Source: Fidelibacterota bacterium (GTDB taxonomy: Bacteria; Fidelibacterota; Marinisomatia; Marinisomatales; UBA8229). Taken from it: a stretch of 46,821 bases of DNA. Each line of letters starts with the position of its first letter. Position 1 is the stretch's first letter. This document shows positions 15,358 to 44,531 of this stretch, one piece after another. The position numbers and the translations under genes are program-made. The notes under the pieces were generated by a model. The model was not told the DNA's origin, did no database searches, and saw nothing but the letters and a program-made list of their open reading frames with translations. The stretch covers positions 1 to 46,821 of the forward strand of contig DPYO01000052.1 of the NCBI GenBank assembly GCA_003535775.1, written 5' to 3'.

Positions 15358-15362
15358 GAAAA

Positions 15363-16085: not shown

Positions 16086-16089
16086 AATA

Positions 16090-21288: not shown

Positions 21289-22280
21289 ACATACTTGGAG
21301 TTGAAACCTCCTGTGACGAGACAGCTGCTGCCGTGTGTGCAAATGGCTCTATTCTGTCAAATATAATTAGTTCACAAAAGATCCACCAATCTTTTGGTGG
21401 TGTTGTTCCAGAACTGGCATCCAGGGAACATGAACGTCTCTTAAACTCACTGGTATTTCAAGCCATTGAAGAAGCTGGAATCTCATTAAGCAGTTTAGAA
21501 GGTATAGCAGTTACAAAAGGGCCCGGTTTGGCGGGAACATTATTGGCTGGCGTTTGTTTTTCAAAAGGATTGGCGCAAGGATTGAGGATTCCTGTCATTG
21601 GGATTAATCATCTTGAAGCCCATATCTTTGCGAGTTTTCTGGAAAATCCAAATTTAACATTTCCATTCGTATGTCTTTTGGTTTCCGGAGGACATACTCA
21701 GGTGTGGCTCATAAATGAAATAGATAACTATGAATTAATGGGAGAAACCAGAGACGACGCTGCCGGGGAGGCTTTTGATAAAGGAGCAAGAATCTTAGGC
21801 CTGGGATATCCGGGAGGACCTGAGATCGAAAAATTAGCACGTAACGGAAATCCAAAAACCATAGATTTCCCGAAGTCATTCATGAAAACCAATGCAATTG
21901 AATTCAGTTTCAGTGGTCTGAAGACATCCTTGCTTTATTATATGGATCACTTTGATGAATCTGATGGCACTATAAGCAGAGAAGATGTTGCCGCCAGCTA
22001 TCAGAATGCAATCATTGAAGTATTGATTCATAAATTGAAACAAACTTTGGAAATTACACATGTCAAAACATGTGTAATAGCTGGTGGTGTGGCTGCAAAT
22101 AATCAACTAAGACAGAAGGCTCATCAGATGCTGCCCGAAATTTCATTGAGTTTCCCTGGCTTGTTATATTGTACTGATAACGCAGCTATGGTTGCTTTTT
22201 TGGGAGAACTGAAATTGAAAGCAGGATATACTTCCCCCATAAATTTTGGGGTCAAGCCTAATTTACAACTCCAAGTCTAA
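21285..22280 (+). CDS. tsaD: tRNA N6-adenosine threonylcarbamoyltransferase
   Basis: 'ILGVETSCDETAAAV', 'GINHLEAHI', 'LLVSGGHTQ', 'DDAAGEAFDKGAR' and 'IAGGVAAN'. Confidence 0.93.
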   Translation: MNILGVETSCDETAAAVCANGSILSNIISSQKIHQSFGGVVPELASREHERLLNSLVFQAIEEAGISLSSLEGIAVTKGPGLAGTLLAGVCFSKGLAQGLRIPVIGINHLEAHIFASFLENPNLTFPFVCLLVSGGHTQVWLINEIDNYELMGETRDDAAGEAFDKGARILGLGYPGGPEIEKLARNGNPKTIDFPKSFMKTNAIEFSFSGLKTSLLYYMDHFDESDGTISREDVAASYQNAIIEVLIHKLKQTLEITHVKTCVIAGGVAANNQLRQKAHQMLPEISLSFPGLLYCTDNAAMVAFLGELKLKAGYTSPINFGVKPNLQLQV

Positions 22281-22348
22281 TCTCAGGTTTTGTGATTCAT
22301 TTCAGCACCATGAAACAACACCACTTTTTTCCCACCTACTCTTAAACC

Positions 22349-24457: not shown

Positions 24458-24520
24458 AAAATATGCTTCTGATTAGTTCAGAATATCAATAACTTTTTAT
24501 TCTAATACTAAAGGAATGGT

Positions 24521-25837
24521 ATGAGACACATAGCAATTATTGGAACAGGATACGTCGGGTTAGTCAGTGGTTCGGGGATATCTGACTTTGGACATAAGGT
24601 AATTTGTGCAGATATTGCTGAAGAAAAGATTAAGATGCTTCAAACTGGTAAAATGCCGATTTATGAACCCGGATTGGATGAACTTGTTGACCGTAACACC
24701 AAGGCAGAAAGGTTGTCCTTTTCAACAGATGTTGGAAAAACAATCCGTGACTCAGAGGTAATTTTTATTGCGGTTAGTACACCGCAAAGCGAAAATGGTG
24801 AAGCGGATATTTCTGCTGTGACAGCAGTGGCAAAAACAATCGGACAAAATTTGAATAACAGAAAAGTGGTCTGTACAAAAAGCACTGTTCCGATAGGCAC
24901 CGGAAAATTAGTTACGTCAATCATTAATGAGAATAATCCTGAAAAAATGGAATTTGATTATGTCTCCAATCCGGAATTTTTGCGTGAGGGATCTGCTGTG
25001 AAAGATTTTCTCTGGCCGGATCGTTTGGTAATCGGAACAGAGTCGGAATGGGGATTTGAGGTGATAAGAGATGTATATCGTCCGTTGTATATCAATGAAA
25101 CGCCTATTGTACATACAACAGTGGAAACAGCTGAATTGATAAAATATGCCAGCAATGCCTTCCTGTCGTTGAAAATCAGTTATATTAATGAAATTTCCGC
25201 TTTATGTGAAAAGATTGGTGCTGACGTTCACGTTGTAGCAAAAGCTATGGGATCTGATGGACGAATAAGTCCGAAATTTCTCCACCCGGGGCCGGGGTTT
25301 GGAGGCTCATGTTTCCCAAAGGATACAATCGCTCTCGTCGCTATGGCTAAGAATAAAAATGTGCCCATGCGTACTATTCAGGCAGCCATAGAAACAAATG
25401 CTCATCAAAAGAAAAGAATGGTAAAAAAACTTCAGGCTTTAACTGGAGATTTTTCAGGATTAAAAATTGGTATTTTAGGTTTAGCATTCAAATCCAAAAC
25501 GGATGATGTCAGAGAATCAGCTTCTCTTGAAATGGTAGGATCATTACTGAATGCAGGTGCACAAGTAAAAGCATATGATCCGGAAGCAAATACCAGCTTT
25601 GCTGAATTTTATCCGCAGATCACATATTGTAAAACCTGGGAAGAAGCAGTAAAAGACACAGATGCCGTTGCAGTGATGACGGAATGGAACGAATTCAGAA
25701 CCATAGACGCAAAGACACTAAAGAATCTCATGAAATCTCCGATTATCCTTGATACACGAAACATTCTTTCCCGGAAAGAATTACAAAAAAATGGATTTTC
25801 TTTTGATAATGTTGGTCGGCCAATGGAAACAAAGTAA
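24521..25837 (+). CDS. ugd: UDP-glucose 6-dehydrogenase family nucleotide-sugar dehydrogenase
   Basis: Rossmann motif 'IAIIGTGYVGLV', 'NPEFLREGSAV', and the catalytic 'GFGGSCFPKD'. Confidence 0.88.
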   Translation: MRHIAIIGTGYVGLVSGSGISDFGHKVICADIAEEKIKMLQTGKMPIYEPGLDELVDRNTKAERLSFSTDVGKTIRDSEVIFIAVSTPQSENGEADISAVTAVAKTIGQNLNNRKVVCTKSTVPIGTGKLVTSIINENNPEKMEFDYVSNPEFLREGSAVKDFLWPDRLVIGTESEWGFEVIRDVYRPLYINETPIVHTTVETAELIKYASNAFLSLKISYINEISALCEKIGADVHVVAKAMGSDGRISPKFLHPGPGFGGSCFPKDTIALVAMAKNKNVPMRTIQAAIETNAHQKKRMVKKLQALTGDFSGLKIGILGLAFKSKTDDVRESASLEMVGSLLNAGAQVKAYDPEANTSFAEFYPQITYCKTWEEAVKDTDAVAVMTEWNEFRTIDAKTLKNLMKSPIILDTRNILSRKELQKNGFSFDNVGRPMETK

Positions 25838-25839
25838 TA

Positions 25840-26403
25840 ATGAAAGTTGAAAAAACACAATTGGATGGATTAGTTGTCATTCATCCGGATGTACACGACG
25901 ATAAACGTGGTTATTTTTTTGAAAGTTATAACAAACCACTTTTTAAATCACTTGGGATCCCTTCAGATTTTGTACAGGATAATCAGGCATTGTCAGGAAA
26001 AAATACATTACGAGGACTTCATTATCAGCTCAAATATCCCCAGGGAAAATTAATTCAAGTTCCACTGGGTAAGGTCTATGATATCTCATTGGATATCAGG
26101 CATGGATCTCCCACATTCGGGCAGTATTTTGGTATAGTGTTATCTGATAAAAATTTTAATATTGTATATGTCCCGGAAGGATTCGCCCATGGTTATGCTG
26201 TCTTGTCTGATACTGCAATCTTCCAATATAAATGTACCGAAACCTACCATCCGGAAGATGAACATGGAATAAAATGGAATGATCCATCCGTTCATATTAA
26301 TTGGCAAATAACTGATCCGATTATTTCTGAAAAGGATTTGGCGCTGCCTTCATTAACAGAACTAGGGCCATCTTTATTACCAGCATACAGAGTTCAAAAA
26401 TGA
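25840..26403 (+). CDS. rfbC: dTDP-4-dehydrorhamnose 3,5-epimerase
   Basis: 'DKRGYFFESY', 'LRGLHYQ' and 'VPEGFAHGY'. Confidence 0.92.
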   Translation: MKVEKTQLDGLVVIHPDVHDDKRGYFFESYNKPLFKSLGIPSDFVQDNQALSGKNTLRGLHYQLKYPQGKLIQVPLGKVYDISLDIRHGSPTFGQYFGIVLSDKNFNIVYVPEGFAHGYAVLSDTAIFQYKCTETYHPEDEHGIKWNDPSVHINWQITDPIISEKDLALPSLTELGPSLLPAYRVQK

Positions 26404-27464
26404 AAACCGTTTATTTTGTCACCGGAGGATGTGGTTTTATCGGAGCAAATTTTATCCAGTATTTATTGAATAAGACAAAACCCAATAGTGTCGTCAATCT
26501 AGATAAACTGACCTATGCAGGAAATCAGAAAAATCTTGCAGATTTTGAACAGGATCCCCGCTATATATTTGTGCATGGTGATATCTGCGATGCGGAATTG
26601 GTTTCAAAGTTATTCACCGAATATCAGCCGAATTATATTGTCAATTTTGCTGCTGAAAGTCATGTTGACAGGTCAATAGATGGGCCGGCAGAGTTCATAC
26701 AAACCAATATTGTCGGTACATCTGTTCTCTTGCAGGAAGCACTGAAATATTATTCAACTTTGAAGGGGAAAGAAAGTGAACGTTTCCGGTTTCATCATGT
26801 TTCGACGGATGAAGTTTTTGGAAGTTTGAGTGAATCAGGATTTTTCACGGAAGAAACCCCTTATGATCCCAGTTCCCCCTATTCCGCATCAAAAGCTTCT
26901 TCAGATCACCTTATCCGTGCGTGGCATCGAACATTTTACCTTCCGGTATTGATTTCTAACTGCTCAAATAATTATGGCCCATATCAATTCCCGGAAAAAC
27001 TGATTCCCTTAATGATTCTGAACTGTCTCGAAGAAAAACCATTACCTGTTTATGGGACAGGAGAAAACATTCGAGACTGGCTGTACGTGGAAGATCACTG
27101 TGATGCTATTTATACAATCTTACAAAAGGGTACTATTGGGGAAACATACAATGTTGGCGGTAATAATGAAATCAAAAACATCCAAATTGTAGAAGTGATC
27201 TGTGATATTCTGAATGATATTCATCCGGCAGGCTCAGGTAAATCGTACCATGAATTAATTAATTTCGTTAAAGACAGGCCTGGACATGACTTTCGGTATG
27301 CAATCGATGCATCAAAGTTAAAGAAAGAAATTGGATGGGAACCCAAAGAATCCTTTAATACAGGAATTCAAAAAACTATTGAGTGGTATCTGAAAAATGA
27401 AGAGTGGTGGAAAACAATTCAAGAGGATACGTACAAACAAGAGAGGCTTGGTATCTCTAATTAA
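26400..27464 (+). CDS. rfbB: dTDP-glucose 4,6-dehydratase
   Basis: 'VTGGCGFIGANF', 'AAESHVDRSI', 'YSASKASSDH' (YxxxK) and 'RPGHDFRYAID'. Confidence 0.92.
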   Translation: MKTVYFVTGGCGFIGANFIQYLLNKTKPNSVVNLDKLTYAGNQKNLADFEQDPRYIFVHGDICDAELVSKLFTEYQPNYIVNFAAESHVDRSIDGPAEFIQTNIVGTSVLLQEALKYYSTLKGKESERFRFHHVSTDEVFGSLSESGFFTEETPYDPSSPYSASKASSDHLIRAWHRTFYLPVLISNCSNNYGPYQFPEKLIPLMILNCLEEKPLPVYGTGENIRDWLYVEDHCDAIYTILQKGTIGETYNVGGNNEIKNIQIVEVICDILNDIHPAGSGKSYHELINFVKDRPGHDFRYAIDASKLKKEIGWEPKESFNTGIQKTIEWYLKNEEWWKTIQEDTYKQERLGISN

Positions 27465-27487
27465 ACAAATGTAACCATCCTAATTAA

Positions 27488-30400
27488 TTACCACTCATCT
27501 TCTTCATCCTCAACAATAAAGCCGTACCCTTCTGTCTCCAAGTGGCGTTTGACGATCGCGGATACATCCTGCTGCCCTTCAATCCCCCACAAGTAATCAC
27601 GTAGTGCCTTCAGCATTGCTTCGGAATCCGGATGCAGTTTAGCTACATCCTTTCCCCAGGCTGATTTCACATCTTCTATCTGTTCATCAATTGGCACGTA
27701 AGGTGTCGGCATCTTTGTTCCAGGTATAATTGCTTGAGGATCACGGAGCCAATCCAGAACCCATTCTGAACGCAACCGTTCTTTTGTTAATGATAAATCT
27801 GGTGCCCATGTAAGAGCTGCCTGTTTCGGTTTGGTGGAACCGTAAAAGTGACAGTTATTACAAGCACCCATATCCTGAATAACATCACCTGCCCTGTACG
27901 AGGAGGAAGACTTAGATATTTGATGGGGGTTCTCATACGCTAATGTCTGACCGTCCTTAATCTGAAAATATTTGATGATTTTATTCCAATCTTTATCCGA
28001 AATCACTGCAAAAGTGGGCATCCGTACTTGGAGGTTAGGACGAATCATGGTTGGATGGTTTAAGAAATTAAATAACCACTCCGGTTGGACCTTTCTTCCT
28101 TCTGTGTCCAATATCGGCGGAGCAAAAGATTGGATTAAACTAGGATCCTCTGCAGAACTTGCACCTGCGATATCCCCTAACCAGGTGGCAATTGTAGGCT
28201 GGATTGCACCGCCTTTATCATCAATTATATGGCAACCCAAACAATTATAAATTCGAATTAATTCTTCTCCTGCTTCAATTGCAAGGTTTCTCTCATTTCT
28301 TTCCGGTATTTTCGATTCGGGAATTTCATCTTTTACAAAACCAATCAAAGCTGTAACAATTGCTGCAATTTCATCATCCGTAAAATCATAATTAGGCATG
28401 CGTAATTTTTCATCTGGCAATTTTACTTTTCCCCGGTCAAAAATTCGTGGTTCCTTTAATTTCTGCGTAAACCAAGCTTCCCTTGAATGGGGTATTTCAA
28501 TAAATCCAAAATCAAGTTTTTCAACCAGTTTACTACCCTCAAATGTTAATTCTGTACCTATCGGCTTGTCATTTTCAAAGCCCGGGATGTCATGGCAGCC
28601 AAAACATCCATACATTCGTATTAATTTTTCACCATTATAATCCAGTTTTTCCTCAAAAGTCATTTCCCCTCTTTTTATCCGGGAATCTTTATCTGATTTC
28701 ATTTTCTTAAGAAAATCAAGGGTGATTTCATCAAGAACCTTCTCATTTATACTGGGAATATTCTTTTCGGAAAATCCTTCTTTTGTTAATGAGGATAGAT
28801 ACGAAGCAATATCTGCAGCTTCCTGATTGGTAAGTCGAAGGTTTGGCATTCTGGTTGAAGAAGAATACTTTTGTGGGTCTTTTAACCAGGAATAAATCCA
28901 ATTGAGGGAGGTTTTTGACCCTGTTCCTACCAGGTTAGGTCCTTGTTCTCTTCTAAGTGTTTCTATTGAGGTTGTTTGATTTAATGGATCTGGGGCAATC
29001 TGGTGGCAACCAAAACAGCCTAAAGATGAGACAAGTAGTTCTCCATTCTTCCCATCACCTTTTATGGGAACAGAATCCATTCCATATTCTGAACTATTTT
29101 TAAACAAATAATGAACGATCGCATGGATTTCCTGATTTGTACGATTTTGTGAGTCTTCATCACTGTTATTCGACTGGTTAAAGAAACGAGGCATCCAGGT
29201 ATTATGCCGAAATGATTTGGGATCGCTGATCCAATTATACGCCCACTCCTTAGTCACTTTTGAGGCAACCTTCTCTAAGCTTGGTCCTGCCTTTGGACGA
29301 TCTTTATATTTATCAATTTTATGGCAGCCAAAACATCCTGAACGTTCAATCAAGTTTAATCCCAGATTTAACTTGTCTGCATATTTTACAGAGGTCTCAT
29401 TTGAATGGCATTTAAAACAACTTGCTTCTACATATTGCATTGGAAGCATTGGAGTATCCCAATGATGTAATTGATGCCAGTTATATTTTTCCTCCCATTC
29501 CTTTGCTTGTTCATGCGATGATGGTACATGAACTGTAGAAATAAAATCAGTTCCACGCCCGCGGCCACCATGGCAGCTAGTACATCCAAATTCTTCAACT
29601 GGGTGGGGTGACGTACTTGATAAATATAAATCTAATCTTGGATGTGCTTTAAATGGCTGGATATCACTTTCAAATCCTTGATCAAGAATTCCTTTATGAC
29701 ACGTCATACATCGGTCTACTTTTGGAACTCTAGTAAAATTAACATTATCAGTTATATCTTTAACAACAACCTGTTCTACTTTATAGTATGGAGATAAAAA
29801 ATCAACAAAAGGTAAATCTCTGATTATATTTCCGATCTTGTTTGAAAAATCCATATGAACAGGGTCGAGATTTGTCAATTTTCTTTCAATAAGAGTTGCT
29901 TCTTTTGTCAGCTTTCCTTTTTCTGCTTTAACCTCATTTATTTCTTTACTGAATTGTTTAACCAAAACAGATTGTTCATCATAATCATCTTGTGCAGCTT
30001 CCAATACCAATTGAATTTCCAACATCTCAGTTTGGATTTTTCCCAACTTTTCTTCCAACTCATTTGCTTCTGATAAATGATGTGTACCTGCCTCTTCATA
30101 TTCATATTTAAGAGCATCATATTTCGCCTTTGAAAAGTTGAATTCCTGCTGTACTCTGTATAATACTGCATCCTTTTTTAATAATTCTTCTTCAGTCCGG
30201 GAAATCGCTTCAGATTTTTCGTTATATAATTCCTTAAAATTAGTTAGTCTTTTTTGAATGTCCTTGTATTCAGCAGTCCCTTCATATAATTTAGATGCCT
30301 TCTCAAACTCTTCATTTGTTTTCTCAATTTGAAGTGCTCTGAAATCACGCTGGTAATCTTTCCATGATCTAGAATAATCATCAACAAAAGACCATACCAA

Positions 30401-30496
30401 AACAGCAAAAAAGATTAAACTGGAAATGGCAAACCAGATATTTAAATTTGAAATATTGTATAGTCTCTCTTGAAAGTTCTCTGGTTTTTCTGCCAT
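27488..30496 (-). CDS. membrane-anchored octaheme c-type cytochrome with N-terminal coiled-coil stalk
   Basis: 1002 aa with one N-terminal TM helix (about residues 19-37) and about 170 aa of heptad-like charged sequence. Eight CxxCH motifs follow: CMTCH, CTSCH, CFKCH, CFGCH x3, CLGCH and CNNCH. The last five each sit in a repeated class-I-like module followed by a '(R)MP' putative Met ligand. It is the last gene of the Rieske/cyt b operon. Confidence 0.85.
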   Translation of the reverse strand: MAEKPENFQERLYNISNLNIWFAISSLIFFAVLVWSFVDDYSRSWKDYQRDFRALQIEKTNEEFEKASKLYEGTAEYKDIQKRLTNFKELYNEKSEAISRTEEELLKKDAVLYRVQQEFNFSKAKYDALKYEYEEAGTHHLSEANELEEKLGKIQTEMLEIQLVLEAAQDDYDEQSVLVKQFSKEINEVKAEKGKLTKEATLIERKLTNLDPVHMDFSNKIGNIIRDLPFVDFLSPYYKVEQVVVKDITDNVNFTRVPKVDRCMTCHKGILDQGFESDIQPFKAHPRLDLYLSSTSPHPVEEFGCTSCHGGRGRGTDFISTVHVPSSHEQAKEWEEKYNWHQLHHWDTPMLPMQYVEASCFKCHSNETSVKYADKLNLGLNLIERSGCFGCHKIDKYKDRPKAGPSLEKVASKVTKEWAYNWISDPKSFRHNTWMPRFFNQSNNSDEDSQNRTNQEIHAIVHYLFKNSSEYGMDSVPIKGDGKNGELLVSSLGCFGCHQIAPDPLNQTTSIETLRREQGPNLVGTGSKTSLNWIYSWLKDPQKYSSSTRMPNLRLTNQEAADIASYLSSLTKEGFSEKNIPSINEKVLDEITLDFLKKMKSDKDSRIKRGEMTFEEKLDYNGEKLIRMYGCFGCHDIPGFENDKPIGTELTFEGSKLVEKLDFGFIEIPHSREAWFTQKLKEPRIFDRGKVKLPDEKLRMPNYDFTDDEIAAIVTALIGFVKDEIPESKIPERNERNLAIEAGEELIRIYNCLGCHIIDDKGGAIQPTIATWLGDIAGASSAEDPSLIQSFAPPILDTEGRKVQPEWLFNFLNHPTMIRPNLQVRMPTFAVISDKDWNKIIKYFQIKDGQTLAYENPHQISKSSSSYRAGDVIQDMGACNNCHFYGSTKPKQAALTWAPDLSLTKERLRSEWVLDWLRDPQAIIPGTKMPTPYVPIDEQIEDVKSAWGKDVAKLHPDSEAMLKALRDYLWGIEGQQDVSAIVKRHLETEGYGFIVEDEEDEW

Positions 30497-30508
30497 ATAT
30501 AAGTAAGT

Positions 30509-31624
30509 TTATATATTGAAAAAATACTCTGGAATTGCCACAATATATTTCAAATTAAACATCCATCTGAGATACATTTTTATAGGTAGACTTATTGCAA
30601 ATAAAATTAAAATAATAAAAACACTATAGCGGAGGTTGCCCAACTTCTGATGCAGTTTATTTAACATGCTTTTTGCTAACAATGGGGGTAAAACCATAAA
30701 GTATCCTAAGATCAATAAAAATCCCCACATCTCCCGGATTAAAATATTATCAGGAAGCCCCGAACGGAACCAAATTATATAAATGTATTCTGATAGATTT
30801 ATATTTGTAAGCGGTGCCAATTTGTGAATATCCCAATACTCAAATGGACCGAAAAAATTCCAGTTTGGTCCTCTTAAAAATGTACCAACTATAATTAGAA
30901 GAATCCAAAGTACCAGCCATCCAAACATAAATAAGGATACAGCCATTTTTCTCTGTTTGAAACTATAGTATCCAACTCCTTCCTTATTGATATCTAGATA
31001 AGGAATTGCCATAAGACCAATAATCATGATGGTAGGAAAAAGGACTCCTGCAATCCATGGATCAAAGTACACTAACATTTCCTGCAATCCTAAAAAATAC
31101 CAGGGTGCTTTGGAAGGATTTGGAGACAGGGTGGGATTTGCAGGCTGTTCTAAGGGTGCTGGTAGAGCAATTGACCACACTACTAATAAGACTGTACACA
31201 ACACCAAAGCAATGAGTTCTATGTAAACTAGATCTGGCCAGGTTAATACCTTATCGTCTGGGTCATGATATTCATTTACCTTTTCATTATTATCAATCCG
31301 CTTATCATTTTCAGTGGCTTGTTTCATACTCAGCCATGTAAAAAACGCAACCAGAAAAATTAATCCAACAATAGGTACGTTATCTGGCTTCAAAACAATA
31401 AGTTTGAAATTCTCATCTGTTAATCCAAAAAGAAAAAAGGTTAACAATCCTAATAATATCAGGATTCCACCTTTATTTGTCCAGATAAGATCTAACTTGA
31501 ATTTCTTGTTCCATTTGTAGAACCAATCATTTGGTGGAAAAATGAAAAAGAAAGTTAAGAGAATAAAGGTTAACATAACGGTTGGGGAGGAAACCGTATT
31601 TATTATATGTTTTATTAACTCCAC
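30509..31624 (-). CDS. cytochrome b C-terminal domain / subunit IV-like protein, enlarged (371 aa)
   Basis: GTG start 21 nt after the cytochrome b stop. It carries the quinol-site 'PNPSKAPWYFLGLQEMLVYF' (PEWY-type motif) and multiple extra TM helices on both sides of the motif. Confidence 0.8.
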   Translation of the reverse strand: MELIKHIINTVSSPTVMLTFILLTFFFIFPPNDWFYKWNKKFKLDLIWTNKGGILILLGLLTFFLFGLTDENFKLIVLKPDNVPIVGLIFLVAFFTWLSMKQATENDKRIDNNEKVNEYHDPDDKVLTWPDLVYIELIALVLCTVLLVVWSIALPAPLEQPANPTLSPNPSKAPWYFLGLQEMLVYFDPWIAGVLFPTIMIIGLMAIPYLDINKEGVGYYSFKQRKMAVSLFMFGWLVLWILLIIVGTFLRGPNWNFFGPFEYWDIHKLAPLTNINLSEYIYIIWFRSGLPDNILIREMWGFLLILGYFMVLPPLLAKSMLNKLHQKLGNLRYSVFIILILFAISLPIKMYLRWMFNLKYIVAIPEYFFNI

Positions 31625-31645
31625 TGGTATAAGTATCTCATCAAT

Positions 31646-32449
31646 TTAAAGCGGTGTAGTAATTCCACCATCTTTTCGAATTCTCCAGAAATGTATTGCC
31701 ATAAAAATTATGATAATAAACGGAAAACCAATACAATGCAGTACATAGAATCGTAATAGAGCAGCCTCACCTACAAAACGACCTCCAAGTAATGCAAATC
31801 TCACATCACTTCCTGCATGAACCAGGTTAATATCCCCAATTGAAAGTAAAGCCGCACCAGGTCCTTCGTGACCTAAAAATGGAGTTGCTCTTGCCATATT
31901 TGTTCCCACAGTGATTGCCCATATTGCTAATTGATCCCAGGGTAAAAGATAACCGGTAAAACTTAGTAACAATGTTAAAACGAGCAGAATAACTCCAACC
32001 ATCCAATTGAACTCCCGTCGGTGGCTTATACGATCCAGTCATGAAAACTCTGAACATATGAATCCAAACTGTTATGACCATAAGATGAGCTGCCCAGCGG
32101 TGGATTTCACGCATAATTCCTAATGGAACCTGTTCACCCAAATCCATAATATCTGTATAAGCATATTCAACAGTAGGCCTATAATAAAACATGAGGAGAA
32201 TTCCTGTGATAGTCAATACACAAAAAATATAAAAAGACAATCCCCCAGCACACCATGTGTATTTCAATCTTAACAGCATGACGCGGCATCCTTACCGGAT
32301 GAAGATGGAGGAATACACTATTCAATACAGAAAACATGCGACCACGCCTGTTTACTTGGTACTCCTGATCTAATTATAGATTTCCAAACCTGAGAATCTC
32401 CAAATCTGGAAATAAAGCCTCCCTTTTTTCCCTTTTGATCTTTAGCCAT
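31646..32449 (-). pseudogene. cytochrome b (b6-type, N-terminal four-helix heme domain) interrupted by three +1 frame changes; pseudogene, assembly artefact or recoded gene
   Basis: The conserved sequence is spread over three frames. Segment 1 is MAKDQKGKKGGFISRFGDSQVWKSIIRSGVPSK. Segment 2 is RRGRMFSVLNSVFLHLHPVRMPRHAVK. Segment 3 is LKYTWCAGGLSF...[28 protein letters not shown]. Segment 4 is [12 protein letters not shown]...[15 protein letters not shown]...[26 protein letters not shown]. The junctions lie near 32350, 32268 and 32018. Track ORFs 31827..32279 and 31646..32002 are segments 3 and 4. Confidence 0.8.
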
Positions 32450-32491
32450 ACTTTTTATAATCCTGTTATTGTTACTTAATTTATAAAATCC

Positions 32492-33214
32492 CTAAACAAT
32501 AAGATATGATTCCGGATCTTTCCATTGTCCTTTTTCGTAAGCATATTTCTTCGTTTTATCAATGAGAATCTGACCATCATTTGCTAATGATATTCTAAAC
32601 CGTTCTAAGGGACGTGGTGCAGGACCCTCAAAATTGATGCCGGTTTTTCGGAACCCACTTCCATGGCATGGACATTTAAATTTACTCTCATTTTTTAACC
32701 AATTCGGAGTACACCCCAGGTGTGTGCAAACTGTTGATAAAGCATAAATTTGTTCTGTTGATCTGATTATCCATACACCGAATTTATTTTTTAAATTTGT
32801 AGACACTTCACCAATTGTATAGTCATCAGGATAGCCTGCTTTAAAAGTCTGTTTTGGCTCAAATAAAACATTTGGAAACATAAATCGTAGAATTATTCCA
32901 AAAAAAGTTCCGGTAGCAGCAGTGAATGCCAACCAAGCCAGGGTAAGCCAGGAAAAAAAAGAGCGTCTTTTTATTGGTTCTACTAAAATTGATCCTTTAC
33001 CAATGGAGGCACGTTTTTGAGAAGGATTTTTTTCCGGTTCGCCTTTAGGTACCTCTGGTTTTTTTGAATCCAGGTTCTGTTCATCTACAGAATCCATTTG
33101 GGGATTAGCACTATCACTACTAATTTCATCGGTCTGTCTAGAACTTTGTTCATTTTCTTCAGTATTATTTACATCATTTGGTATGTTTTTATGTTTATCC
33201 ATAGGAAACATCAT
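32492..33214 (-). CDS. Rieske [2Fe-2S] iron-sulfur subunit
   Basis: Cluster boxes 'CTHLGC' and 'CPCHGSGF', a twin-arginine-like 'KRRSFFSWL', then a TM helix. It has a long polar N-terminal extension. Confidence 0.9.
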   Translation of the reverse strand: MMFPMDKHKNIPNDVNNTEENEQSSRQTDEISSDSANPQMDSVDEQNLDSKKPEVPKGEPEKNPSQKRASIGKGSILVEPIKRRSFFSWLTLAWLAFTAATGTFFGIILRFMFPNVLFEPKQTFKAGYPDDYTIGEVSTNLKNKFGVWIIRSTEQIYALSTVCTHLGCTPNWLKNESKFKCPCHGSGFRKTGINFEGPAPRPLERFRISLANDGQILIDKTKKYAYEKGQWKDPESYLIV

Positions 33215-34100
33215 ATTCCATCCACTGGTTAGAAGAACTCGTATTTATTTTTAACACATCCATTGCTGTTTTTCGAATATTAATATTATTTTCCTCATCA
33301 GCCAGTTCTTGAATCTTACTATTAATGATGGGGTCATTTAGAAGTATTCCTGCTCTGATTGCAATAATTCGAGCCTGATCCCGTTCCCGTATATCCACCT
33401 CTGGGAAATTAATGAAAAATTTGCCTTCGATCAATTTTAATATTATTTCACGGCCAGAATCATCTCCAATTTTAGCAAGAGATATAGCTGCATCCCATCT
33501 AATATTTGGTTGACTATCATATAATGATTTTTTTAAATCCTCTATTACTTTTGGATCAGCAATATTTCCGAAAGCAATAACAGTTTGCAAGCGAATGTTT
33601 TCATCTTCATGATCTAAAAATAGTTTCAGTTTTTCGACTGCTTTCCCAGATTTTAAAAGACCCAGCGCTCTTATGATAGCAGGAATATTTTCAGTATTTT
33701 CATTTTCAATTTCAGAAAGTAACGGATCGATATATCTGCTATTACCAGTTCTTCCCATTGCCAGGGCAAGATATTGTCGTACTCGATTATCATCATGTTT
33801 GGACTGTTTAAATATATTGATCATCTCTGAAATAAACCGATCATCCTTTGAGATTTCATCGGAAATGTACAAAACCTTTGAAAGTTCAAAGGCAGATTGC
33901 CAGCGTTTAGTAGCGCCACCAATTTTGATATCATTCAGATAATCATAGGGGGTAGCATCCTCATAGGTCAGAAGACTAAACAAACTATAAATAAACACCA
34001 AAGATGCGGCTACAAGAAAAGGAATAATCACAAATGAGTGAAACAATATCTTAAAAATGGATTTTTCCGGTTCGTTCGGGATTGGGATTTGATCTGTCAT
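33195..34100 (-). CDS. HEAT-repeat (PBS-lyase-type) protein with N-terminal TM anchor
   Basis: TM helix 'FVIIPFLVAASLVFIYSLFSLL' followed by repeated 'xxVRxxAxxALGxxGxxxAxxxL' HEAT-like units ('NRVRQYLALAMGRTG', 'IPAIIRALGLL', 'ENIRLQTVIAFGNI', 'PNIRWDAAISLAKIG'). It overlaps the Rieske start. Confidence 0.7.
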   Translation of the reverse strand: MTDQIPIPNEPEKSIFKILFHSFVIIPFLVAASLVFIYSLFSLLTYEDATPYDYLNDIKIGGATKRWQSAFELSKVLYISDEISKDDRFISEMINIFKQSKHDDNRVRQYLALAMGRTGNSRYIDPLLSEIENENTENIPAIIRALGLLKSGKAVEKLKLFLDHEDENIRLQTVIAFGNIADPKVIEDLKKSLYDSQPNIRWDAAISLAKIGDDSGREIILKLIEGKFFINFPEVDIRERDQARIIAIRAGILLNDPIINSKIQELADEENNINIRKTAMDVLKINTSSSNQWMEYDVSYG

Positions 34101-34182
34101 TAATTACCTAAACCACAAATTGTATCAAGAATCAAATTAAAACTATCTCTAAAAAATTTACAAGAGCAAAAACGGGAACTTA

Positions 34183-35082
34183 TCACCCTAGTTTTTCCCT
34201 TTTTCGAAGGTACTGACTGAGAGCAATATCCAAATCTTGATCTGTAAACAAAGGAATATAATCTATTAATCGTTTTCGGCATTGCTTTCGGTATTTATCC
34301 TGAAATTCAAGCATCAAGTCCTTGTAAGAATTACGAATTTGCCACGGCTCTGTAGTAACCAGTTCCCCTGTTTCCATATCCTTAAACCGGGTGCGGGTGT
34401 TAAAATTGAAGTTCAATTCCTGACGATCAAGAATGTGAAAGACAATTACCTCCTGTTTATTGTATCTGAAATGTTTTAATCCCCCTATAATTGCATCAAA
34501 ATCATCGAAAAGGTCAGAGATCAGAATAACAAGTCCACGTTTCTTGATCCGATCAGCCATTTCGTGTAATACATTTCCAATCTGTGTATCTTCACCAGGA
34601 TTTATCTGATCCAGTTGGGAAAAAATGGTATTTAGATGACTGGATGTTGAGCGAGGAGGAATAAATGACTGGATTTTTTTATCAAATAGAATGAGACCGA
34701 TCCCATCTTTTTGATTAAGCATCAGATAAGAAAGGGCTGCAGTAAGGTAACTTGCATATTCCAATTTGGATATGTTTTTGCTACGGTAAGTCATGGATTT
34801 ACTGATATCCATAATCAGGTACGAACGAAGATTGGTCTCTTCTTCATATTGCTTTACATAATACCGATCGGTTTTTCCATAAAGTTTCCAATCGATATGC
34901 CGAATCTCATCTCCCGGGCCATATGCCCTATGTTCCGCAAACTCTACACTAAATCCATGGTAGGGGCTTTTATGAAGTCCGATGATATATCCTTCAACTA
35001 CAAGTCTTGCTCTTAGTGACATATTACCCAGCTTTGCTGCCACCTCAGGATGAAGGTATTTTCTTTTATCTACAGCGGGCAA
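34183..35082 (-). CDS. DUF58 domain protein (vWA-like partner of MoxR)
   Basis: 'HKSPYHGFSVEFAEHRAYGPGDEIRHIDWKLYGKTDRYYVKQYEEE' is the DUF58 signature, with the vWA-like 'LIMDISKSM'. It begins 3 nt after the MoxR stop. Confidence 0.85.
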   Translation of the reverse strand: MPAVDKRKYLHPEVAAKLGNMSLRARLVVEGYIIGLHKSPYHGFSVEFAEHRAYGPGDEIRHIDWKLYGKTDRYYVKQYEEETNLRSYLIMDISKSMTYRSKNISKLEYASYLTAALSYLMLNQKDGIGLILFDKKIQSFIPPRSTSSHLNTIFSQLDQINPGEDTQIGNVLHEMADRIKKRGLVILISDLFDDFDAIIGGLKHFRYNKQEVIVFHILDRQELNFNFNTRTRFKDMETGELVTTEPWQIRNSYKDLMLEFQDKYRKQCRKRLIDYIPLFTDQDLDIALSQYLRKREKLG

Positions 35083-35085
35083 AAC

Positions 35086-36105
35086 TTAACTCTTTGCTTC
35101 CAACAATTTTACCAGGATATCATCGGTACTTAATCCTTCTGCTTCAGCATTAAAATTGGGGAGAATTCGATGCCTCATAACAGGGAAAACCAAATCCTTA
35201 ATATCATCAATATTTGGTGTTGGGCGACCATCCAAGACCGCTTTTGCTTTTGCACCAAGGATAAGATATTGAGAGGCCCTTGGTCCTGCTCCCCATTCAA
35301 TCCAGTCATTGATAAAATCAGGTGCAACTGCGGATCCTGGCCGGGTTGATGCTACTAAATCTACAGCATATTCCACTACATTTTCCGCCACAGGAACCCT
35401 GCGGATAAGATCTTGATAAGAAAGAAGATCGTTCCTGCCTATAACTTTTTTCAGTGTTTCAGAAGTTTGTCCGGTTGTGGTTTGTACAATGGCTATTTCT
35501 TCTGATCGATCAGGATAATTGATTTTGATATGAAACATAAACCTGTCCAACTGAGCCTCAGGAAGGGGGTAGGTCCCCTCCTGTTCAATAGGGTTCTGGG
35601 TTGCAAGTACAAAAAAGGGTTCCTCTAAAACATAGGAGGTACCTGATGCAGTAACCTTGTGCTCCTCCATCGCTTCCAACAGGGCAGCCTGTGTTTTTGG
35701 AGGTGTGCGGTTAATCTCGTCTGCCAGGATGATATTTCCAAAGATCGGCCCCTTAAAAAATCGAAACCCTCTTTTCCCTGTTGATTGATCTTCATCAATG
35801 ACCTCTGTTCCAGTAATGTCGCTAGGCATAAGATCGGGAGTGAACTGGATCCGCTTGAATTTCAATTCCAAAAGTTCAGCAATTGATTTGATCATCAGTG
35901 TTTTCGCCAAGCCCGGTACACCAACCAGGAGAGTGTGTCCTTTGCAGAATAAAGCAATTAGTATATGATCCAGAACGCTGACTTGACCAATAATTGATTT
36001 CCCAATTTCTGAAAGAAAATGGGTGCGGGCTTCAGTCAATTTTTCAAGTAAGTGTAAATCTTTTTGTTCTTTCATATTATTCCCTGTTTTGATATTTACA
36101 TTCAA
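35086..36105 (-). CDS. MoxR-family AAA+ ATPase
   Basis: Walker A 'GVPGLAKT', Walker B 'ILADEINR', 'VLATQNPIEQEGTYPLPEAQLDRF' and 'GAGPRASQ'. Confidence 0.92.
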   Translation of the reverse strand: MNVNIKTGNNMKEQKDLHLLEKLTEARTHFLSEIGKSIIGQVSVLDHILIALFCKGHTLLVGVPGLAKTLMIKSIAELLELKFKRIQFTPDLMPSDITGTEVIDEDQSTGKRGFRFFKGPIFGNIILADEINRTPPKTQAALLEAMEEHKVTASGTSYVLEEPFFVLATQNPIEQEGTYPLPEAQLDRFMFHIKINYPDRSEEIAIVQTTTGQTSETLKKVIGRNDLLSYQDLIRRVPVAENVVEYAVDLVASTRPGSAVAPDFINDWIEWGAGPRASQYLILGAKAKAVLDGRPTPNIDDIKDLVFPVMRHRILPNFNAEAEGLSTDDILVKLLEAKS

Positions 36106-36188
36106 AAACTAAAGAGGGAAAATTACGAGCCCCTTGTCCCTTTTACAATCTTATTGTCTTGCTCTCCCAATAAAGATTTGAGAAATTC

Positions 36189-37253
36189 ATGTTCATGTTC
36201 AACGTTAAAACAAATGAAAAAGTTCACTGGATAGGCTTGACCCGTAATGAAATGAGGGAACATGTTGCAAAGCTGGGACAACCACATTTCCGAGCAGATC
36301 AAATTTACAACTGGATTTATTCCGGGAAAATTAAATCATTTCAATCCATGGCAAATATTCCCAAATCCTTCCGCACAGTTTTGGGCCAAACATCGGGGAT
36401 TCATCCCCTCTCTTTAGTTAAAATAACCGGTGAGGATTCCTCGCTTACCAGGAAATTTCTCTTCAGGCTGTCCACCGGTGAGATGATTGAATCCGTTTTA
36501 ATGCAGGAAGGAAACCGAATAACTGTATGCTTATCTTCCCAGGTGGGGTGTGCAATGGATTGCGATTTCTGTGCTACAGCGAAAATGGGATTCCAAAAAA
36601 ATCTCTCTGTTGGGGAAATTGTAGATCAATTTCTATTTTTGCAGCAAGAATCTGAAAAAAAAATTACCAATGTTGTATTTATGGGAATGGGAGAACCTTT
36701 CCTGAATTATGCCCGAGTGATAAAAGCTGCTGATCTGTTAAATCAATCAGATGGAATTGATTTAGGCGCACGCAGGATTACAATCTCGACTGTGGGGATT
36801 ATTCCAAGAATAAAGCAGTTTTCCAAAGAGGGTCATCGCTATAAGTTAGCTATCAGCTTGAATGGAACAACCCAGAATCAACGATTACAAACAATGCCTG
36901 CGGCAAAAAAATATCCCATTCATAAGCTGATAGATGCGGCAAAAAACTACTATGAAACAGCAAAACGGTTTCCCACTTTCGAATATGTACTGATGAACAA
37001 TCTTAATGATAGAACTACTGATGCTGAAAATCTCATTAAATTGATTGGAAATCTCCCTTGTAAAGTGAATCTAATTCCCTACAATGAAATTGGAGGAACT
37101 TATAAGCGTCCATCACATGACCGGTTAACACGTTTTATCAATGCACTGAAAAATGTACCGTTTACCGTGACTGTTCGTTGGAGCAATGGTACTGAAATTG
37201 ATGCTGGTTGCGGCCAATTAGCCGTGAATGCAGGAGGTAGTGTTCAATCATAA
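36189..37253 (+). CDS. rlmN: 23S rRNA (adenine2503-C2)-methyltransferase, radical SAM
   Basis: 'FRADQIYNWIY', the radical-SAM 'CAMDCDFCAT', 'GMGEPFLNY' and the C-terminal 'DAGCGQL'. Confidence 0.92.
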   Translation: MFMFNVKTNEKVHWIGLTRNEMREHVAKLGQPHFRADQIYNWIYSGKIKSFQSMANIPKSFRTVLGQTSGIHPLSLVKITGEDSSLTRKFLFRLSTGEMIESVLMQEGNRITVCLSSQVGCAMDCDFCATAKMGFQKNLSVGEIVDQFLFLQQESEKKITNVVFMGMGEPFLNYARVIKAADLLNQSDGIDLGARRITISTVGIIPRIKQFSKEGHRYKLAISLNGTTQNQRLQTMPAAKKYPIHKLIDAAKNYYETAKRFPTFEYVLMNNLNDRTTDAENLIKLIGNLPCKVNLIPYNEIGGTYKRPSHDRLTRFINALKNVPFTVTVRWSNGTEIDAGCGQLAVNAGGSVQS

Positions 37254-37270
37254 ACAAAAAACTCATATCA

Positions 37271-38050
37271 ATGGCTGGGTCTATCCGTTCGTATTCAGGA
37301 TTTCAAGGGAAGAAAGCAGTAATCTTAGGCTCAGGACTTGGTAGTTTACCAGATCAATTCGAAAACAAAACTATTATTCCTTACGAAAAAGTTCCTGGAT
37401 ATCCCAAACCCTCTGTGAAGGGACACTCTGGAGAATTTGTTGTTGGCACTCTGAATGGTGAAGAAATTCTGGCAGCAAAAGGAAGGTTCCATTATTACGA
37501 AGGGTTTGACTTCTCAGAAATTACATTGCCTATCCGTTTATTGCATGAGCTCGGTATTTCATTTGTTATAATCACAAATTCCGCTGGTTCATTACGTAAG
37601 GACTACCATCCTGGAACATTGATGGCTATGAATGGTCATCTTGACTGCACATTTATTGAGGGACCTGAATTACCAACAATAAATAAAAAACCACGTTTTT
37701 ATAATTCTGAAATATTAGCATTAGCAAAAAAATGCTCTCTTGAAACTGGTGTTCAAATAAAAGAGGGAGTTTATTGCTGGACATTAGGGCCAGCTTACGA
37801 AACGCCGGATGAAGTTAAGTTCATACAAAACCTCGGTGGAGATGCGGTAGGAATGAGCACGGTACCTGAAATAAAAATGGCAGGAGAACTTGGAATTAGT
37901 TCATTGGGAATTTCCTGTTTGACAAATTACGCTGCAGGAATTACAAAAAATTCTTTATCCCATGATGAAGTGATAGAGACCGCTGATAAAGTAAAAAATC
38001 AATTTTCAAAACTAGTCGCAAAAATTTTGATTGAAGAAGACACAAATTAA
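37271..38050 (+). CDS. purine nucleoside phosphorylase (trimeric PNP/MTAP family)
   Basis: 'GHSGEFVVG', 'GRFHYYEG', 'ITNSAGSL', 'GPAYETPDEV' and 'GMSTVPE'. Confidence 0.85.
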   Translation: MAGSIRSYSGFQGKKAVILGSGLGSLPDQFENKTIIPYEKVPGYPKPSVKGHSGEFVVGTLNGEEILAAKGRFHYYEGFDFSEITLPIRLLHELGISFVIITNSAGSLRKDYHPGTLMAMNGHLDCTFIEGPELPTINKKPRFYNSEILALAKKCSLETGVQIKEGVYCWTLGPAYETPDEVKFIQNLGGDAVGMSTVPEIKMAGELGISSLGISCLTNYAAGITKNSLSHDEVIETADKVKNQFSKLVAKILIEEDTN

Positions 38051-38151
38051 AATCTATTTGTGAAAAAAGAAAGATTGTATAATTCAAAAAAACTGGATGA
38101 TATTTACTCCCATATAAGAGGAGATTTAGAAAGGATTTAAGAAAATTTACT

Positions 38152-39351
38152 ATGACAAAAAAGCACCAGAAAAATGATTTAACAGTTAATGTAAGATCAG
38201 AAATCTTTGAGATTCAGGATACCATAATTGAAACCCGGAGAGATATTCATAAATATCCGGAATTAGGTTTTGAAGTACACCGTACAGCTGGAATTGTTTC
38301 AGACCGTTTGAATTCATTTGGAATTGACGTTCAAACCGGAATAGGGAAAACCGGGGTTGTCGGGACTCTTCAGGGAGAAAAAGACGGTGCCACCATTGCG
38401 TTGCGTGCAGATATGGATGCACTGCCAATCCAGGAAACAAGTGACATCCCATACAAGTCAGTTCACGATGGGGTTATGCATGCCTGTGGACACGATGGTC
38501 ATACAGCCATGCTTTTAGGGGCAGCAGAAATTATTTCAAAATTTCAGGATACCCTCAACGGTACTGTAAAATTCATTTTCCAGCCGGCTGAAGAAGGAGG
38601 AGGAGGCGCCCGTTTTATGATTGAAGATGGATGTTTGGATGGAGTTGATGAGATCTACGGAATTCATGTTTGGAGTTATCAAAAATACGGAACAATCGGT
38701 GTTAAAGAAGGCCCAACTTTAGCTGCAGCAGATGCATTTACAATAACAATTAAGGGGAAAGGTGGACATGGAGCAGCTCCTCAGGGAACAGTTGATGCCA
38801 TTGTAGTTGCTTCCCATCTTGTGACAGCCCTGCAAACCATCGTAAGCAGGAATACAAATCCTCTGGAAAGTACAGCGCTTACTGTGGGAAAAATTTCAGG
38901 AGGACACAACTTCAACGTTATCGCTGATACGGTTGAACTCAAAGGTACTGCCCGTGCCTATACTGAAGAAAATAGGCAAATGATCAAGAAACGATTAAAT
39001 GAAATAATTGAAGGAGTAGGAAGTACGTATGGTGCAAAAATTGAAATGGATTATTGGGATGGATATCCACCTACTGTAAATCATAAAGTACCGGTGGAAA
39101 GATTAGTTAGATCTGCAGAAAAAATTGTTGGAGAAGGAGTAGGATTCCCATATTTATCTATGGGTGGAGAAGATTTCAGCTATTACACGCAGAAAATTCC
39201 CGGCTGTTTTTTCTTTGTAGGATCAACCCCTCCGGACCAAAAACCAATGAGCGTGCCTCACCATTGTTCACATTTTAATATTGATGAACGGGCGCTTCTT
39301 GTTGGTTCAAGCATTTATGTACAATTAATTGAGGATTTATTAATAAAATAA
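38152..39351 (+). CDS. M20 family amidohydrolase (N-acyl-amino acid / hippurate hydrolase-like)
   Basis: 'LRADMDALPI', 'HACGHDGH', 'FQPAEEGGGGA' and 'GGEDFSYY'. Confidence 0.85.
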   Translation: MTKKHQKNDLTVNVRSEIFEIQDTIIETRRDIHKYPELGFEVHRTAGIVSDRLNSFGIDVQTGIGKTGVVGTLQGEKDGATIALRADMDALPIQETSDIPYKSVHDGVMHACGHDGHTAMLLGAAEIISKFQDTLNGTVKFIFQPAEEGGGGARFMIEDGCLDGVDEIYGIHVWSYQKYGTIGVKEGPTLAAADAFTITIKGKGGHGAAPQGTVDAIVVASHLVTALQTIVSRNTNPLESTALTVGKISGGHNFNVIADTVELKGTARAYTEENRQMIKKRLNEIIEGVGSTYGAKIEMDYWDGYPPTVNHKVPVERLVRSAEKIVGEGVGFPYLSMGGEDFSYYTQKIPGCFFFVGSTPPDQKPMSVPHHCSHFNIDERALLVGSSIYVQLIEDLLIK

Positions 39352-39353
39352 AT

Positions 39354-41054
39354 TTAATATCCTTCCGTTGCGTTTTCACCGCGGGGATCAGCGCCACCGT
39401 AAAACCCCTTCTCCCCTATCATTATTCCATTGGCCTGCCCAATAGTGCCCCAGCGATAAGACCGGATGATGTGACCACGATTAATTAGATTCTGTTCTAC
39501 ATCTTTGGACAAGCTTCTTTGCTCCACAATAATTGCATCAGGTAACCACTGTGAATGGACTCGTGGGACAGAAACCGCTTCCTGAATATCCATCCCGTGA
39601 ATTGCAACATTTAGAATAATTTGCATGACTGTAGTGATGATGGTAGACCCACCGGGAGTACCAATGATCAAAAAAGGCTCACCGTTCTTTAGAACAATTG
39701 TTGGAGTCATGGAGCTCAATGGCCGTTTGTAAGGCTGAATAGCATTGGCTTCATTTCCAATGAGCCCGAAGATATTCGGTGACCCGGGTTTTGCTGAAAA
39801 ATCATCCATTTCATTGTTCAAAAAGAATCCAGCACCCTCTACTAATACACCACAGCCAAAGCCAGTATTCAATGTGGTGGTGACACTCACTGCATTCCCA
39901 TTCTTGTCAATAACGGAATAATGGGTTGTCTCTCGGCTTTCATAAGCTAAAGGATCGCCTGCTTTTACAACCGAACTTTTTGTCGCTTTTTCCATGGAAA
40001 TATTCTGAATTCTCTCGAAAGCATATTCTTTTGAAACCAGCATTGATACCGGCACTTCCCAGAAATCCGGGTCACCCATGTGTTCAGCACGATCCGCATA
40101 GGCCCTGCGTTCAATTTCCGTGAGAAGGTGAATATAATCGGATGAATTCCAGCCTAAAGTATCCAAAGGATATTGTTCTAACATGTTGAGCATTTGGATC
40201 AGGAGAACTCCTCCAGAACTTGGAGGTCCCATAGAAATAAAGTCTAAACCCTTGAAATCTCCGGTAACAACAGTGCGATAAACTGAATGATAATTATCCA
40301 AATCTTCTTTTGTAATGAAACCATTGCCTTCGGCCATTTCTCTTTCAATCAATTGAGCAGTTTTCCCTTCATAAAACCCGGCGCGCCCTTTTCTGGAAAT
40401 CAGCTTCAAAGTCCTGGCTAAATCTCTCTGGACTAACTTATCTCCTGCTCTCCATGGTTCACCGTTCTTTTTAATAAAAACGGCTTTTGCTCCGTCGTCA
40501 TTTATAAAAAAGTCGTGGAAAATATTCAAAACTTGGGCAAACCCATATGAGATGGGAAAACCCCGCTCTGCCAATTGAATGGCAGGAAGCAGCAATTGAC
40601 GCAGGGAAATATTCCCCGAACCGTGATCTCTCCAGATTTTTAATAATCCATCTACTGATCCCGGTGTACCTGCTGCCAGGTGAGAATAAAGAGAAAGGCC
40701 GTGAACCACATTGCTGGAATCATCCAGATACATATCGCGGTGTGCCATACTTGGTGCCATCTCACGAAAATCCAGGCTAAATGATTCTCCGTAGGCCGTG
40801 TGAGCTACTAAAAAACCTCCTCCGCCAATATTTCCGGCCTGGGGATGTGTTACCGCCAACGTAAATCCAGTGGCCACCGCTGCATCTATTGCATTACCGC
40901 CTTTTTTTAATATGTTAACTCCAGCATCTGAGGCCAATCTGCTGGCAGATACCACCATACCATTTTTTGCATATTCCGGTTCTGCATGGGAATATTGAAT
41001 GAGACACAGAAAAATGATTGTCCAAAATATTTTTTTACATTCTATCTTCTTCAT
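39354..41054 (-). CDS. ggt: gamma-glutamyltransferase
   Basis: Signal peptide, then 'GGNAIDAAVA', the autoprocessing site 'ETTHYSVIDKNGNAVSVTTTLN', 'PGGSTII' and 'GGADPRG'. Confidence 0.92.
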   Translation of the reverse strand: MKKIECKKIFWTIIFLCLIQYSHAEPEYAKNGMVVSASRLASDAGVNILKKGGNAIDAAVATGFTLAVTHPQAGNIGGGGFLVAHTAYGESFSLDFREMAPSMAHRDMYLDDSSNVVHGLSLYSHLAAGTPGSVDGLLKIWRDHGSGNISLRQLLLPAIQLAERGFPISYGFAQVLNIFHDFFINDDGAKAVFIKKNGEPWRAGDKLVQRDLARTLKLISRKGRAGFYEGKTAQLIEREMAEGNGFITKEDLDNYHSVYRTVVTGDFKGLDFISMGPPSSGGVLLIQMLNMLEQYPLDTLGWNSSDYIHLLTEIERRAYADRAEHMGDPDFWEVPVSMLVSKEYAFERIQNISMEKATKSSVVKAGDPLAYESRETTHYSVIDKNGNAVSVTTTLNTGFGCGVLVEGAGFFLNNEMDDFSAKPGSPNIFGLIGNEANAIQPYKRPLSSMTPTIVLKNGEPFLIIGTPGGSTIITTVMQIILNVAIHGMDIQEAVSVPRVHSQWLPDAIIVEQRSLSKDVEQNLINRGHIIRSYRWGTIGQANGIMIGEKGFYGGADPRGENATEGY

Positions 41055-41105
41055 TTCAGTACTGATTTATAAGGATAAACTCAATGGATATAATCCAAAG
41101 ACAAA

Positions 41106-41129
41106 GCAAACTAAATCCGCATAGTTTGC
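41106..41129 (-). terminator. candidate intrinsic terminator hairpin
   Basis: Perfect 8-bp stem GCAAACTA / TAGTTTGC with an 8-nt loop. On the minus strand it is followed by UUUGUCUUUGG. It lies downstream of the HMA-lipoprotein gene and upstream of ggt. Confidence 0.35.
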
Positions 41130-41257
41130 AACATATTTTATTATTATCACTCTTTTTATCTTTTATATTAACCCTTGTTTTATTTTTAACAGAAAGGAAT
41201 TAAATAAAAATTGGACAATGGCTCACTTCAGATACGGATGGCAATAAATAGTCTGGT

Positions 41258-41599
41258 CTATAGCATACCGCCGATTTTACAGCAATCAGGAAGATTTTCG
41301 TAAACTATAGGATCCGCCTCTGTATTATTGGCTTGATAACCAAGAGCAGAAACCACTTTTTCTATGGCAGCTAACTCAATAATCGATGCCTTGTAAGTTA
41401 CATGGCCAACTTTTGTATTTAAATCAACGTCAAACTTGCTGATACCGTCAACTTTGGCCATTCCTGATTCAATAGTTTTTTTACACATACCACATTGAAC
41501 GGTACTCAGTGTCACGTCAGCGTGTTTTTCTCCTTCACTGCTACAGGCCATAATTCCAAATAATAGTCCCCATAAAGCGAATATGTTTACTTTCTTCAT
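41258..41599 (-). CDS. heavy-metal-associated (HMA) domain lipoprotein
   Basis: The start is set at MKKVNIFALWGLLFGIMAC (lipobox). The HMA fold has a 'VQCGMCKKTIE' CxxC site and 'VGHVTY'. The tail is an unusual 'PDCCKIGG'. The longer track ORF (to 41734) overlaps the transporter gene. Confidence 0.7.
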   Translation of the reverse strand: MKKVNIFALWGLLFGIMACSSEGEKHADVTLSTVQCGMCKKTIESGMAKVDGISKFDVDLNTKVGHVTYKASIIELAAIEKVVSALGYQANNTEADPIVYENLPDCCKIGGML

Positions 41600-41696
41600 T
41601 TTACACTCCTTGTTAAATAGAAATATTCGAAGAATTTTATTTAACCAGTTTTTCTGTTGCTCAATGACAACTACCGTACCATCCCTGACATATTTT

Positions 41697-43234: not shown

Positions 43235-43248
43235 TTTTATACCTAGAT

Positions 43249-44513: not shown

Positions 44514-44531
44514 TAAATAGACATTTTTTAA

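Follow-up and report, generated by a model that had tools for sequence, protein, structure and literature searches.

Three +1 frame changes interrupt the cytochrome b gene at 31646..32449 on the minus strand of the window, which is the whole stretch of 46,821 nt of Marinimicrobia/SAR406 DNA that was analysed. These changes are very probably an artefact of mixed-haplotype consensus or polishing that involved two co-occurring Marinimicrobia lineages, designated A and B here. Apart from them, the gene is an ordinary cytochrome b of the split type that belongs to a Marinimicrobia Rieske/cytochrome b operon, and in the organism it is almost certainly as intact as in every relative.

The cytochrome b gene and its operon

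The gene was located in an operon at 27488..34100 (minus strand), which encoded a HEAT-repeat protein, the Rieske subunit, the N-terminal part of cytochrome b, a 371-aa C-terminal/subunit-IV-like protein and a 1002-aa cytochrome c. The order of the operon was the same in both lineages, and the surrounding genes of the window on the same strand were all open. The members of the operon that were important for the analysis are as follows.

32492..33214, minus strand: Rieske iron-sulfur subunit (PF00355); the ORF is intact but chimeric
31646..32449, minus strand: N-terminal subunit of cytochrome b (b6/Bacillus-type split; PF00033, E=1.4e-41), in four frame segments
30509..31624, minus strand: C-terminal/subunit-IV-like membrane subunit of cytochrome b (PF00032); intact, pure lineage A, 100% identical to contig L005
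27488..30496, minus strand: 1002-aa multihaem cytochrome c with eight CxxCH motifs; last gene of the operon, intact and identical to the protein of NODE_523

The start of the subunit-IV-like gene was ambiguous. The longest ORF began with the GTG at 31624 (371 aa, as in lineage-B contigs), and the gene was called at 355 aa in the near-identical lineage-A contigs L005 and L003. Elsewhere in the window, a 149-aa ORF at 13318..13767 (minus strand) was situated inside and antisense to a 260-aa SH3/NlpC-P60 gene (13054..13836) and is probably spurious.

The frame structure of cytochrome b was evaluated via three-frame translation of the minus strand over 31600..32520. The ATG was at 32449 and the stop at 31646, and the frame moved by +1 near 32354, 32272 and 32017. 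The translation thus bore out the original prediction that the gene runs through four segments in three frames with three +1 changes, as well as its statement that the frame is the same in the first and last segments. The shared frame follows from the three extra bases, which sum to +3. The gene had a length of 804 nt in the window, whereas it had 801 nt (266 aa) in all relatives.

The joined 266-aa protein scored 142.9 bits for PF00033 (Cytochrome_B) against a cut-off of 27.2 (E=1.4e-41); the Pfam gathering score was exceeded, and the similarity to the family extended over the full length. Compared with the intact public protein P0001, the top hit of the cluster search described below, it had 94% identity at 100% coverage, and residues 34 to 265 were 100% identical. 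The extra bases were positioned by comparison with intact relatives rather than by the joins that had been proposed at first. Of the bases originally designated to be skipped, those at the second and third junctions gave the right protein. The one at the first junction did not, because skipping a base at 32350 led to VPSK|RRGR, whereas the relatives had VP-RN-RRGR or VP-VN-RRGR. As in the known split cytochrome b of the b6f or Bacillus type, a PF00033 subunit was followed by a PF00032 subunit; the original prediction had already pointed out the two pairs of His and the motifs PREFNW and LPWDQ. Once the three artefactual bases were removed, the gene in the window did not differ from that system.

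Intact relatives and the mosaic of two lineages

A search of 5.8 billion protein clusters returned thousands of homologues (8000 listed), the best of which were contiguous proteins of 261-290 aa (263-266 aa for the very best) labelled as Marinimicrobia, Neomarinimicrobiota or Fidelibacterota. The 90% cluster of P0001 had 116 members; 40 of them were read, including several 266-aa variants that occurred on many contigs. The intact 266-aa gene was found on 21 contigs in the form of P0121 (lineage A), on 105 contigs as P0122 and on approximately 20 contigs as P0123 (lineage B). The original prediction had proposed that the orthologues of relatives be checked for contiguity. Their 801-nt ORFs were unbroken, and the shift sites were conserved in none of them. 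In the two closest populations, contiguous ORFs were present on over 140 contigs, and the same was true of 120 of 120 homologues among the matches listed. Moreover, the DNA alignment with two intact relatives placed three single extra bases in the window. The closest context was given by L005 (ENA ERZ838136 NODE_523, 51 kb), which carried a 1002-aa cytochrome c exactly as in the window, together with an intact 266-aa cytochrome b. In the species-representative genomes that were scanned, the relatives of the window had at most 84% identity.

The window was a mosaic of the two lineages. The anomalous stretch is described as follows.

31707..32926, minus strand: lineage-B patch in a lineage-A backbone, extending over the Rieske gene (3' half) and the greater part of cytochrome b

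Outside approximately 31707..32926, the window was 99.7-100% identical to at least 12 independent lineage-A assemblies. The assemblies that covered the remaining window came from Tara, JGI, Logan and NCBI; they had 99.7-99.97% identity and no coding indel. Jointly, at least 12 independent assemblies covered 1..46821 and showed no other coding indel, in agreement with the original claim that no other gene of the window is broken. The only other length difference from assemblies that were otherwise 99.7-99.9% identical was an intergenic run of nine T at 17479 (between 16753..17478 and 17549..20167), the length of which varied by 1-2 bases. This variation is ordinary homopolymer length variation or error in non-coding DNA.

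Over the 23,016 nt aligned between the window and L005, there were 155 mismatches and 7 gap positions. Within approximately 31500-33000 were 150 of the 155 mismatches and all 7 gap positions, and each gap was an extra base of the window. The identity to L005 was 100% outside 31733..32894. The identity to the lineage-B contig L086 (Tara ERR599008) was 96-100% inside 31733..32894 and 50-85% outside it. The same ranges were obtained for the ten contigs L086-L095, which carried P0123, a protein with exactly the N-terminus of the window; these contigs represent lineage B. Beyond the patch, lineage B was approximately 80% identical to the window.

The B-specific alleles spanned 32894 to 31733, and the switch points between A and B fell in runs where both lineages were identical (32926..32895, 32 nt; 31732..31707, 26 nt). 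Along the window, the distinguishing sites carried the A allele at 67 positions and then the B allele at 83 positions (pure B through the 3' half of the Rieske gene); they were mostly B through cytochrome b and then A at 38 sites. Inside the patch, there were 157 B-only alleles, and the A-only alleles were confined to the three junctions and the SNPs at 32145 and 31889. One switch fell within the Rieske gene, and the Rieske protein of the window was therefore chimeric: residues 1-107 were those of lineage A, residues 108-240 were identical to lineage B, and there were 18 aa differences from the lineage-A protein.

Both lineages were present in one Tara sample, ERR599008, as the contigs L104 (A) and L086 (B), both from ENA ERZ908597. 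Their co-occurrence at about 80% nucleotide identity provides the precondition for a chimera. The flanks thus belonged to one lineage, and the anomalous stretch belonged to another lineage from the same sample type.

Alleles of both lineages at the junctions

Each junction had one extra base, and the window held the union of the A and B alleles there. The three junctions are listed below.

J1, 32354..32356, minus strand: A CCA-AG-AAAC (Arg-Asn), B CCA-GT-AAAC (Val-Asn), window CCA-AGT-AAAC
J2, 32269..32273, minus strand: A GT-AAG-ATT (Val-Arg), B GT-TAA-ATT (Val-Lys), window GT-TAAG-ATT
J3, 32017..32019, minus strand: A CCACC-GA-GAGAG (Pro-Arg, AGA), B CCACC-AC-GGGAG (Pro-Arg, CGG), window CCACC-GAC-GGGAG
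Union strings of the cytochrome b gene in the window: CCAAGTAAACAGG, GCTGTTAAGATTG, CCACCGACGGGAG

At J1, the A at 32356 and the G at 32355 were A-only alleles, and the T at 32354 was absent from lineage A and formed an extra column relative to lineage B. At J3, the G at 32019 and the A at 32018 were A-only alleles, and the C at 32017 was extra. The idea that two synonymous alleles of one codon stood in tandem (Lys AAG/AAA, Arg AGG/CGG) was only roughly right. It was rejected since the unions spanned adjacent substitutions, two of which were non-synonymous between A and B (RN/VN and R/K).

Intact alleles were at 8051-8851 of L005 (A) and 3362-4162 of L086 (B). Independently of the window, the intact genes of A and B, both 801 nt long and with 76 mismatches between them, were aligned globally under several scorings. 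Cheap linear gaps, namely, the default of Racon partial-order alignment (3/-5/-4), unit edit cost and a megablast-like scoring, gave three compensating gap pairs and no others across the gene. These were at nucleotides 94/95, 177/179 and 429/430 of the ORF, which correspond to J1, J2 and J3, respectively. Under the affine scorings (defaults of bwa, minimap2 and blastn), no gaps were opened at the junctions in the A/B alignment. Hence, the pipeline must have used an aligner with linear or cheap gaps or a graph consensus. When A and B were merged so that bases took precedence over gaps and B over A, the union consensus had 804 nt and reproduced the gene of the window with all three extra bases; there were 10 SNP differences, 6 of which were beyond the 3' border of the patch. 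The indels could thus be predicted from the parental alignment and contained bases of both parents. In the Rieske part, where A and B were approximately 80% identical, about seven gap pairs were predicted by the same scoring, yet the window was pure B. The unions thus occurred only in the region of about 90% identity, where cross-alignment of the lineages was feasible.

The following mechanism is proposed on the basis of these comparisons. The backbone of lineage A switches to lineage B for approximately 1.2 kb (~31707..32926). The A and B sequences could be aligned together because they were approximately 90% identical in the cytochrome b part of the patch. At the adjacent substitutions AG/GT, AAG/TAA and GA/AC, an aligner with cheap gaps would write an insertion and a deletion around the shared base, and a consensus that kept the base on both sides would give AGT, TAAG and GAC, each one base over. 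The software step may have been, for example, partial-order-alignment or pile-up polishing, or the merging of contigs. If the consensus came from a partial-order graph, a path that visits the allele-specific nodes of both lineages would gather the edge weights of both haplotypes. The union path could thus outweigh either pure path, and the commoner allele would win at a plain SNP. Short reads that align ambiguously to strain-conserved regions have been named as a possible source of polishing errors (PMC11552494).

It had been argued that three random errors within 330 nt are unlikely. This argument was correct, and the pattern was far beyond chance. However, it does not favour biology because the errors were not random; their positions were determined by the sites where the two merged alleles differed at adjacent bases.

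Other carriers of the frame changes were searched for in public data. The out-of-frame peptides had no match among the 5.8 billion protein clusters, and no other frameshifted copy was found there. The J3 union string was not found in an exact scan of JGI metagenome contigs. A scan of metagenome contigs for J2 with zero or one extra base did not find the union form and matched only the pure-B form without the extra base (L108, a JGI contig). The exact chimeric Rieske protein had no record among approximately 15 billion sequences, and exact look-up of the 150-aa fragment and the 694-aa protein of the window also returned no record. A 118-aa fragment on two other contigs (L003 and L004) was considered as a sign of independent frameshifted copies and was rejected, since neither contig had the extra base. 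L003 had a scaffold N-gap inside cytochrome b, and L004 was a contig that began just upstream. In L003 (ENA ERZ23499111 scaffold_421), which is an independent assembly of the same population, the N run was at 8538..8639, about 55 nt were duplicated on both sides of the gap, and the gene caller gave only the 118-aa tail of cytochrome b. Given this gap with duplicated flanks, the locus is a recurrent trouble spot for assemblers.

Competing explanations and implications

Besides an assembly or consensus problem such as strain heterogeneity, which is the explanation that stood, the original prediction had offered a recent pseudogene and recoding; the evidence was strongly against both. In the former case, a lineage-A cell would very recently have gained a 1.2-kb B fragment by homologous recombination and, simultaneously or afterwards, acquired three 1-nt insertions in cytochrome b. 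The switch points in A=B runs of 32 nt and 26 nt were as recombination requires, the lineages co-occurred in one sample, and the given sequence does hold three insertions. However, random insertions would not fall on the exact three gap-pair sites, nor would they restore lineage-A bases. With about 2400 distinct outcomes of a 1-nt insertion in 801 nt, the rough chance is ~6/2400^3, or ~4e-10. Moreover, in-register recombination or mismatch repair cannot make the union of two alleles of equal length. The cytochrome b part of the patch contained no base foreign to both lineages, and the joined protein was that of P0001 over residues 34-265; hence, there was no sign of decay. Mutations unrelated to other alleles and relaxed substitution, which characterize an ordinary pseudogene, were not observed, and a second assembly with the shifts was not found in the searches above. 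A pseudogene is therefore very unlikely. An origin from a paralogue or gene conversion was rejected: the operon of lineage-B contigs had an identical gene order and diverged flanks, indicating that B is the orthologous locus of another organism.

With recoding, full-length cytochrome b would be restored by +1 ribosomal frameshifting at three sites or by editing or slippage of the transcript. The three shifts were all +1 and summed to 3, the conserved segments were all free of stops, and the conceptual product was a perfect cytochrome b. The likeness to frameshifting of the prfB/RF2 type was limited to the +1 direction and the open frames around the junctions; it differed from that type in that relatives did not share the sites, a shift-prone codon with a stop was lacking and a single gene contained three sites. 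The hallmark of programmed frameshifting is a shift site conserved among orthologues, and it was absent, as all close and distant orthologues were contiguous. By inspection, no junction had a slippery or shift-prone codon followed by a stop or a rare (hungry) codon, and the old frame stayed open for another 10, 29 and 63 codons after the junctions. The sequence around the junctions also agreed with the original remark that no junction is a long homopolymer, and no run of the kind associated with transcriptional slippage was present at the three sites. Furthermore, the union structure was explained in full without recoding. The probability of recoding is thus vanishingly small, and real, decoded shifts are essentially excluded. 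A literature search on Marinimicrobia Rieske/cytochrome b complexes returned nothing bearing on the frame changes.

During amplification by PCR or MDA, template switching between A and B molecules would yield a real but non-biological mosaic molecule. Amplification chimeras typically take the form of such a mosaic, in which two co-occurring lineages are joined at a conserved gene, and template switching, which occurs in register at identical stretches, would explain the borders of the patch. However, it leaves the three out-of-register one-base unions within 340 nt unexplained, and the remainder of the 46.8-kb window was clean lineage A; such a chimera is considered extremely improbable. Errors of sequencing chemistry, namely, the homopolymer indels that long-read or flow-based platforms produce, were rejected as well, since the sites had no long homopolymer and the other 45 kb had no coding indel.

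The preferred reading, a consensus or polishing artefact, also has points against it. A pure de Bruijn assembler cannot emit k-mers that are absent from the reads; without a consensus or polishing step after such an assembly, the unions would be in real molecules. In addition, a clean 1.2-kb B patch with switches in short identical runs is also what homologous recombination looks like. In a variant of the preferred reading, the patch would be a genuine recombination import across lineages of about 80% identity, and only the three extra bases would be artefactual. The Rieske cluster-binding domain and cytochrome b would then have been exchanged together as one unit, and the extra bases would have been added when lineage-A reads were later aligned onto the B patch. 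This import is rather unlikely.

As in known mixed-strain or cross-mapping consensus errors of metagenomes, the defect was limited to one conserved locus with perfect flanks, the sequence was a mosaic of co-occurring lineages, and the extra bases were allele unions that depended on alignment. Such errors are usually SNP-level mosaics or homopolymer indels between strains, whereas the indels here were at sites of adjacent substitutions and the sources were lineages of about 80% ANI. Clustered same-direction frameshifts in a conserved metagenomic gene can mimic recoding or a fresh pseudogene and therefore call for caution, as such clusters can be a deterministic by-product of haplotype merging. 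A simple test that needs no reads is a cheap-gap alignment of the nearest intact alleles, which shows whether the gap pairs coincide with the shifts and thereby separates such artefacts from real frameshifts. The chimeric Rieske protein in the record would mislead allele-level or recombination analysis. The frame changes themselves are not a real biological feature and have no biological importance. The unusually large multihaem cytochrome c that accompanies the Rieske/cytochrome b complex could be of interest itself.
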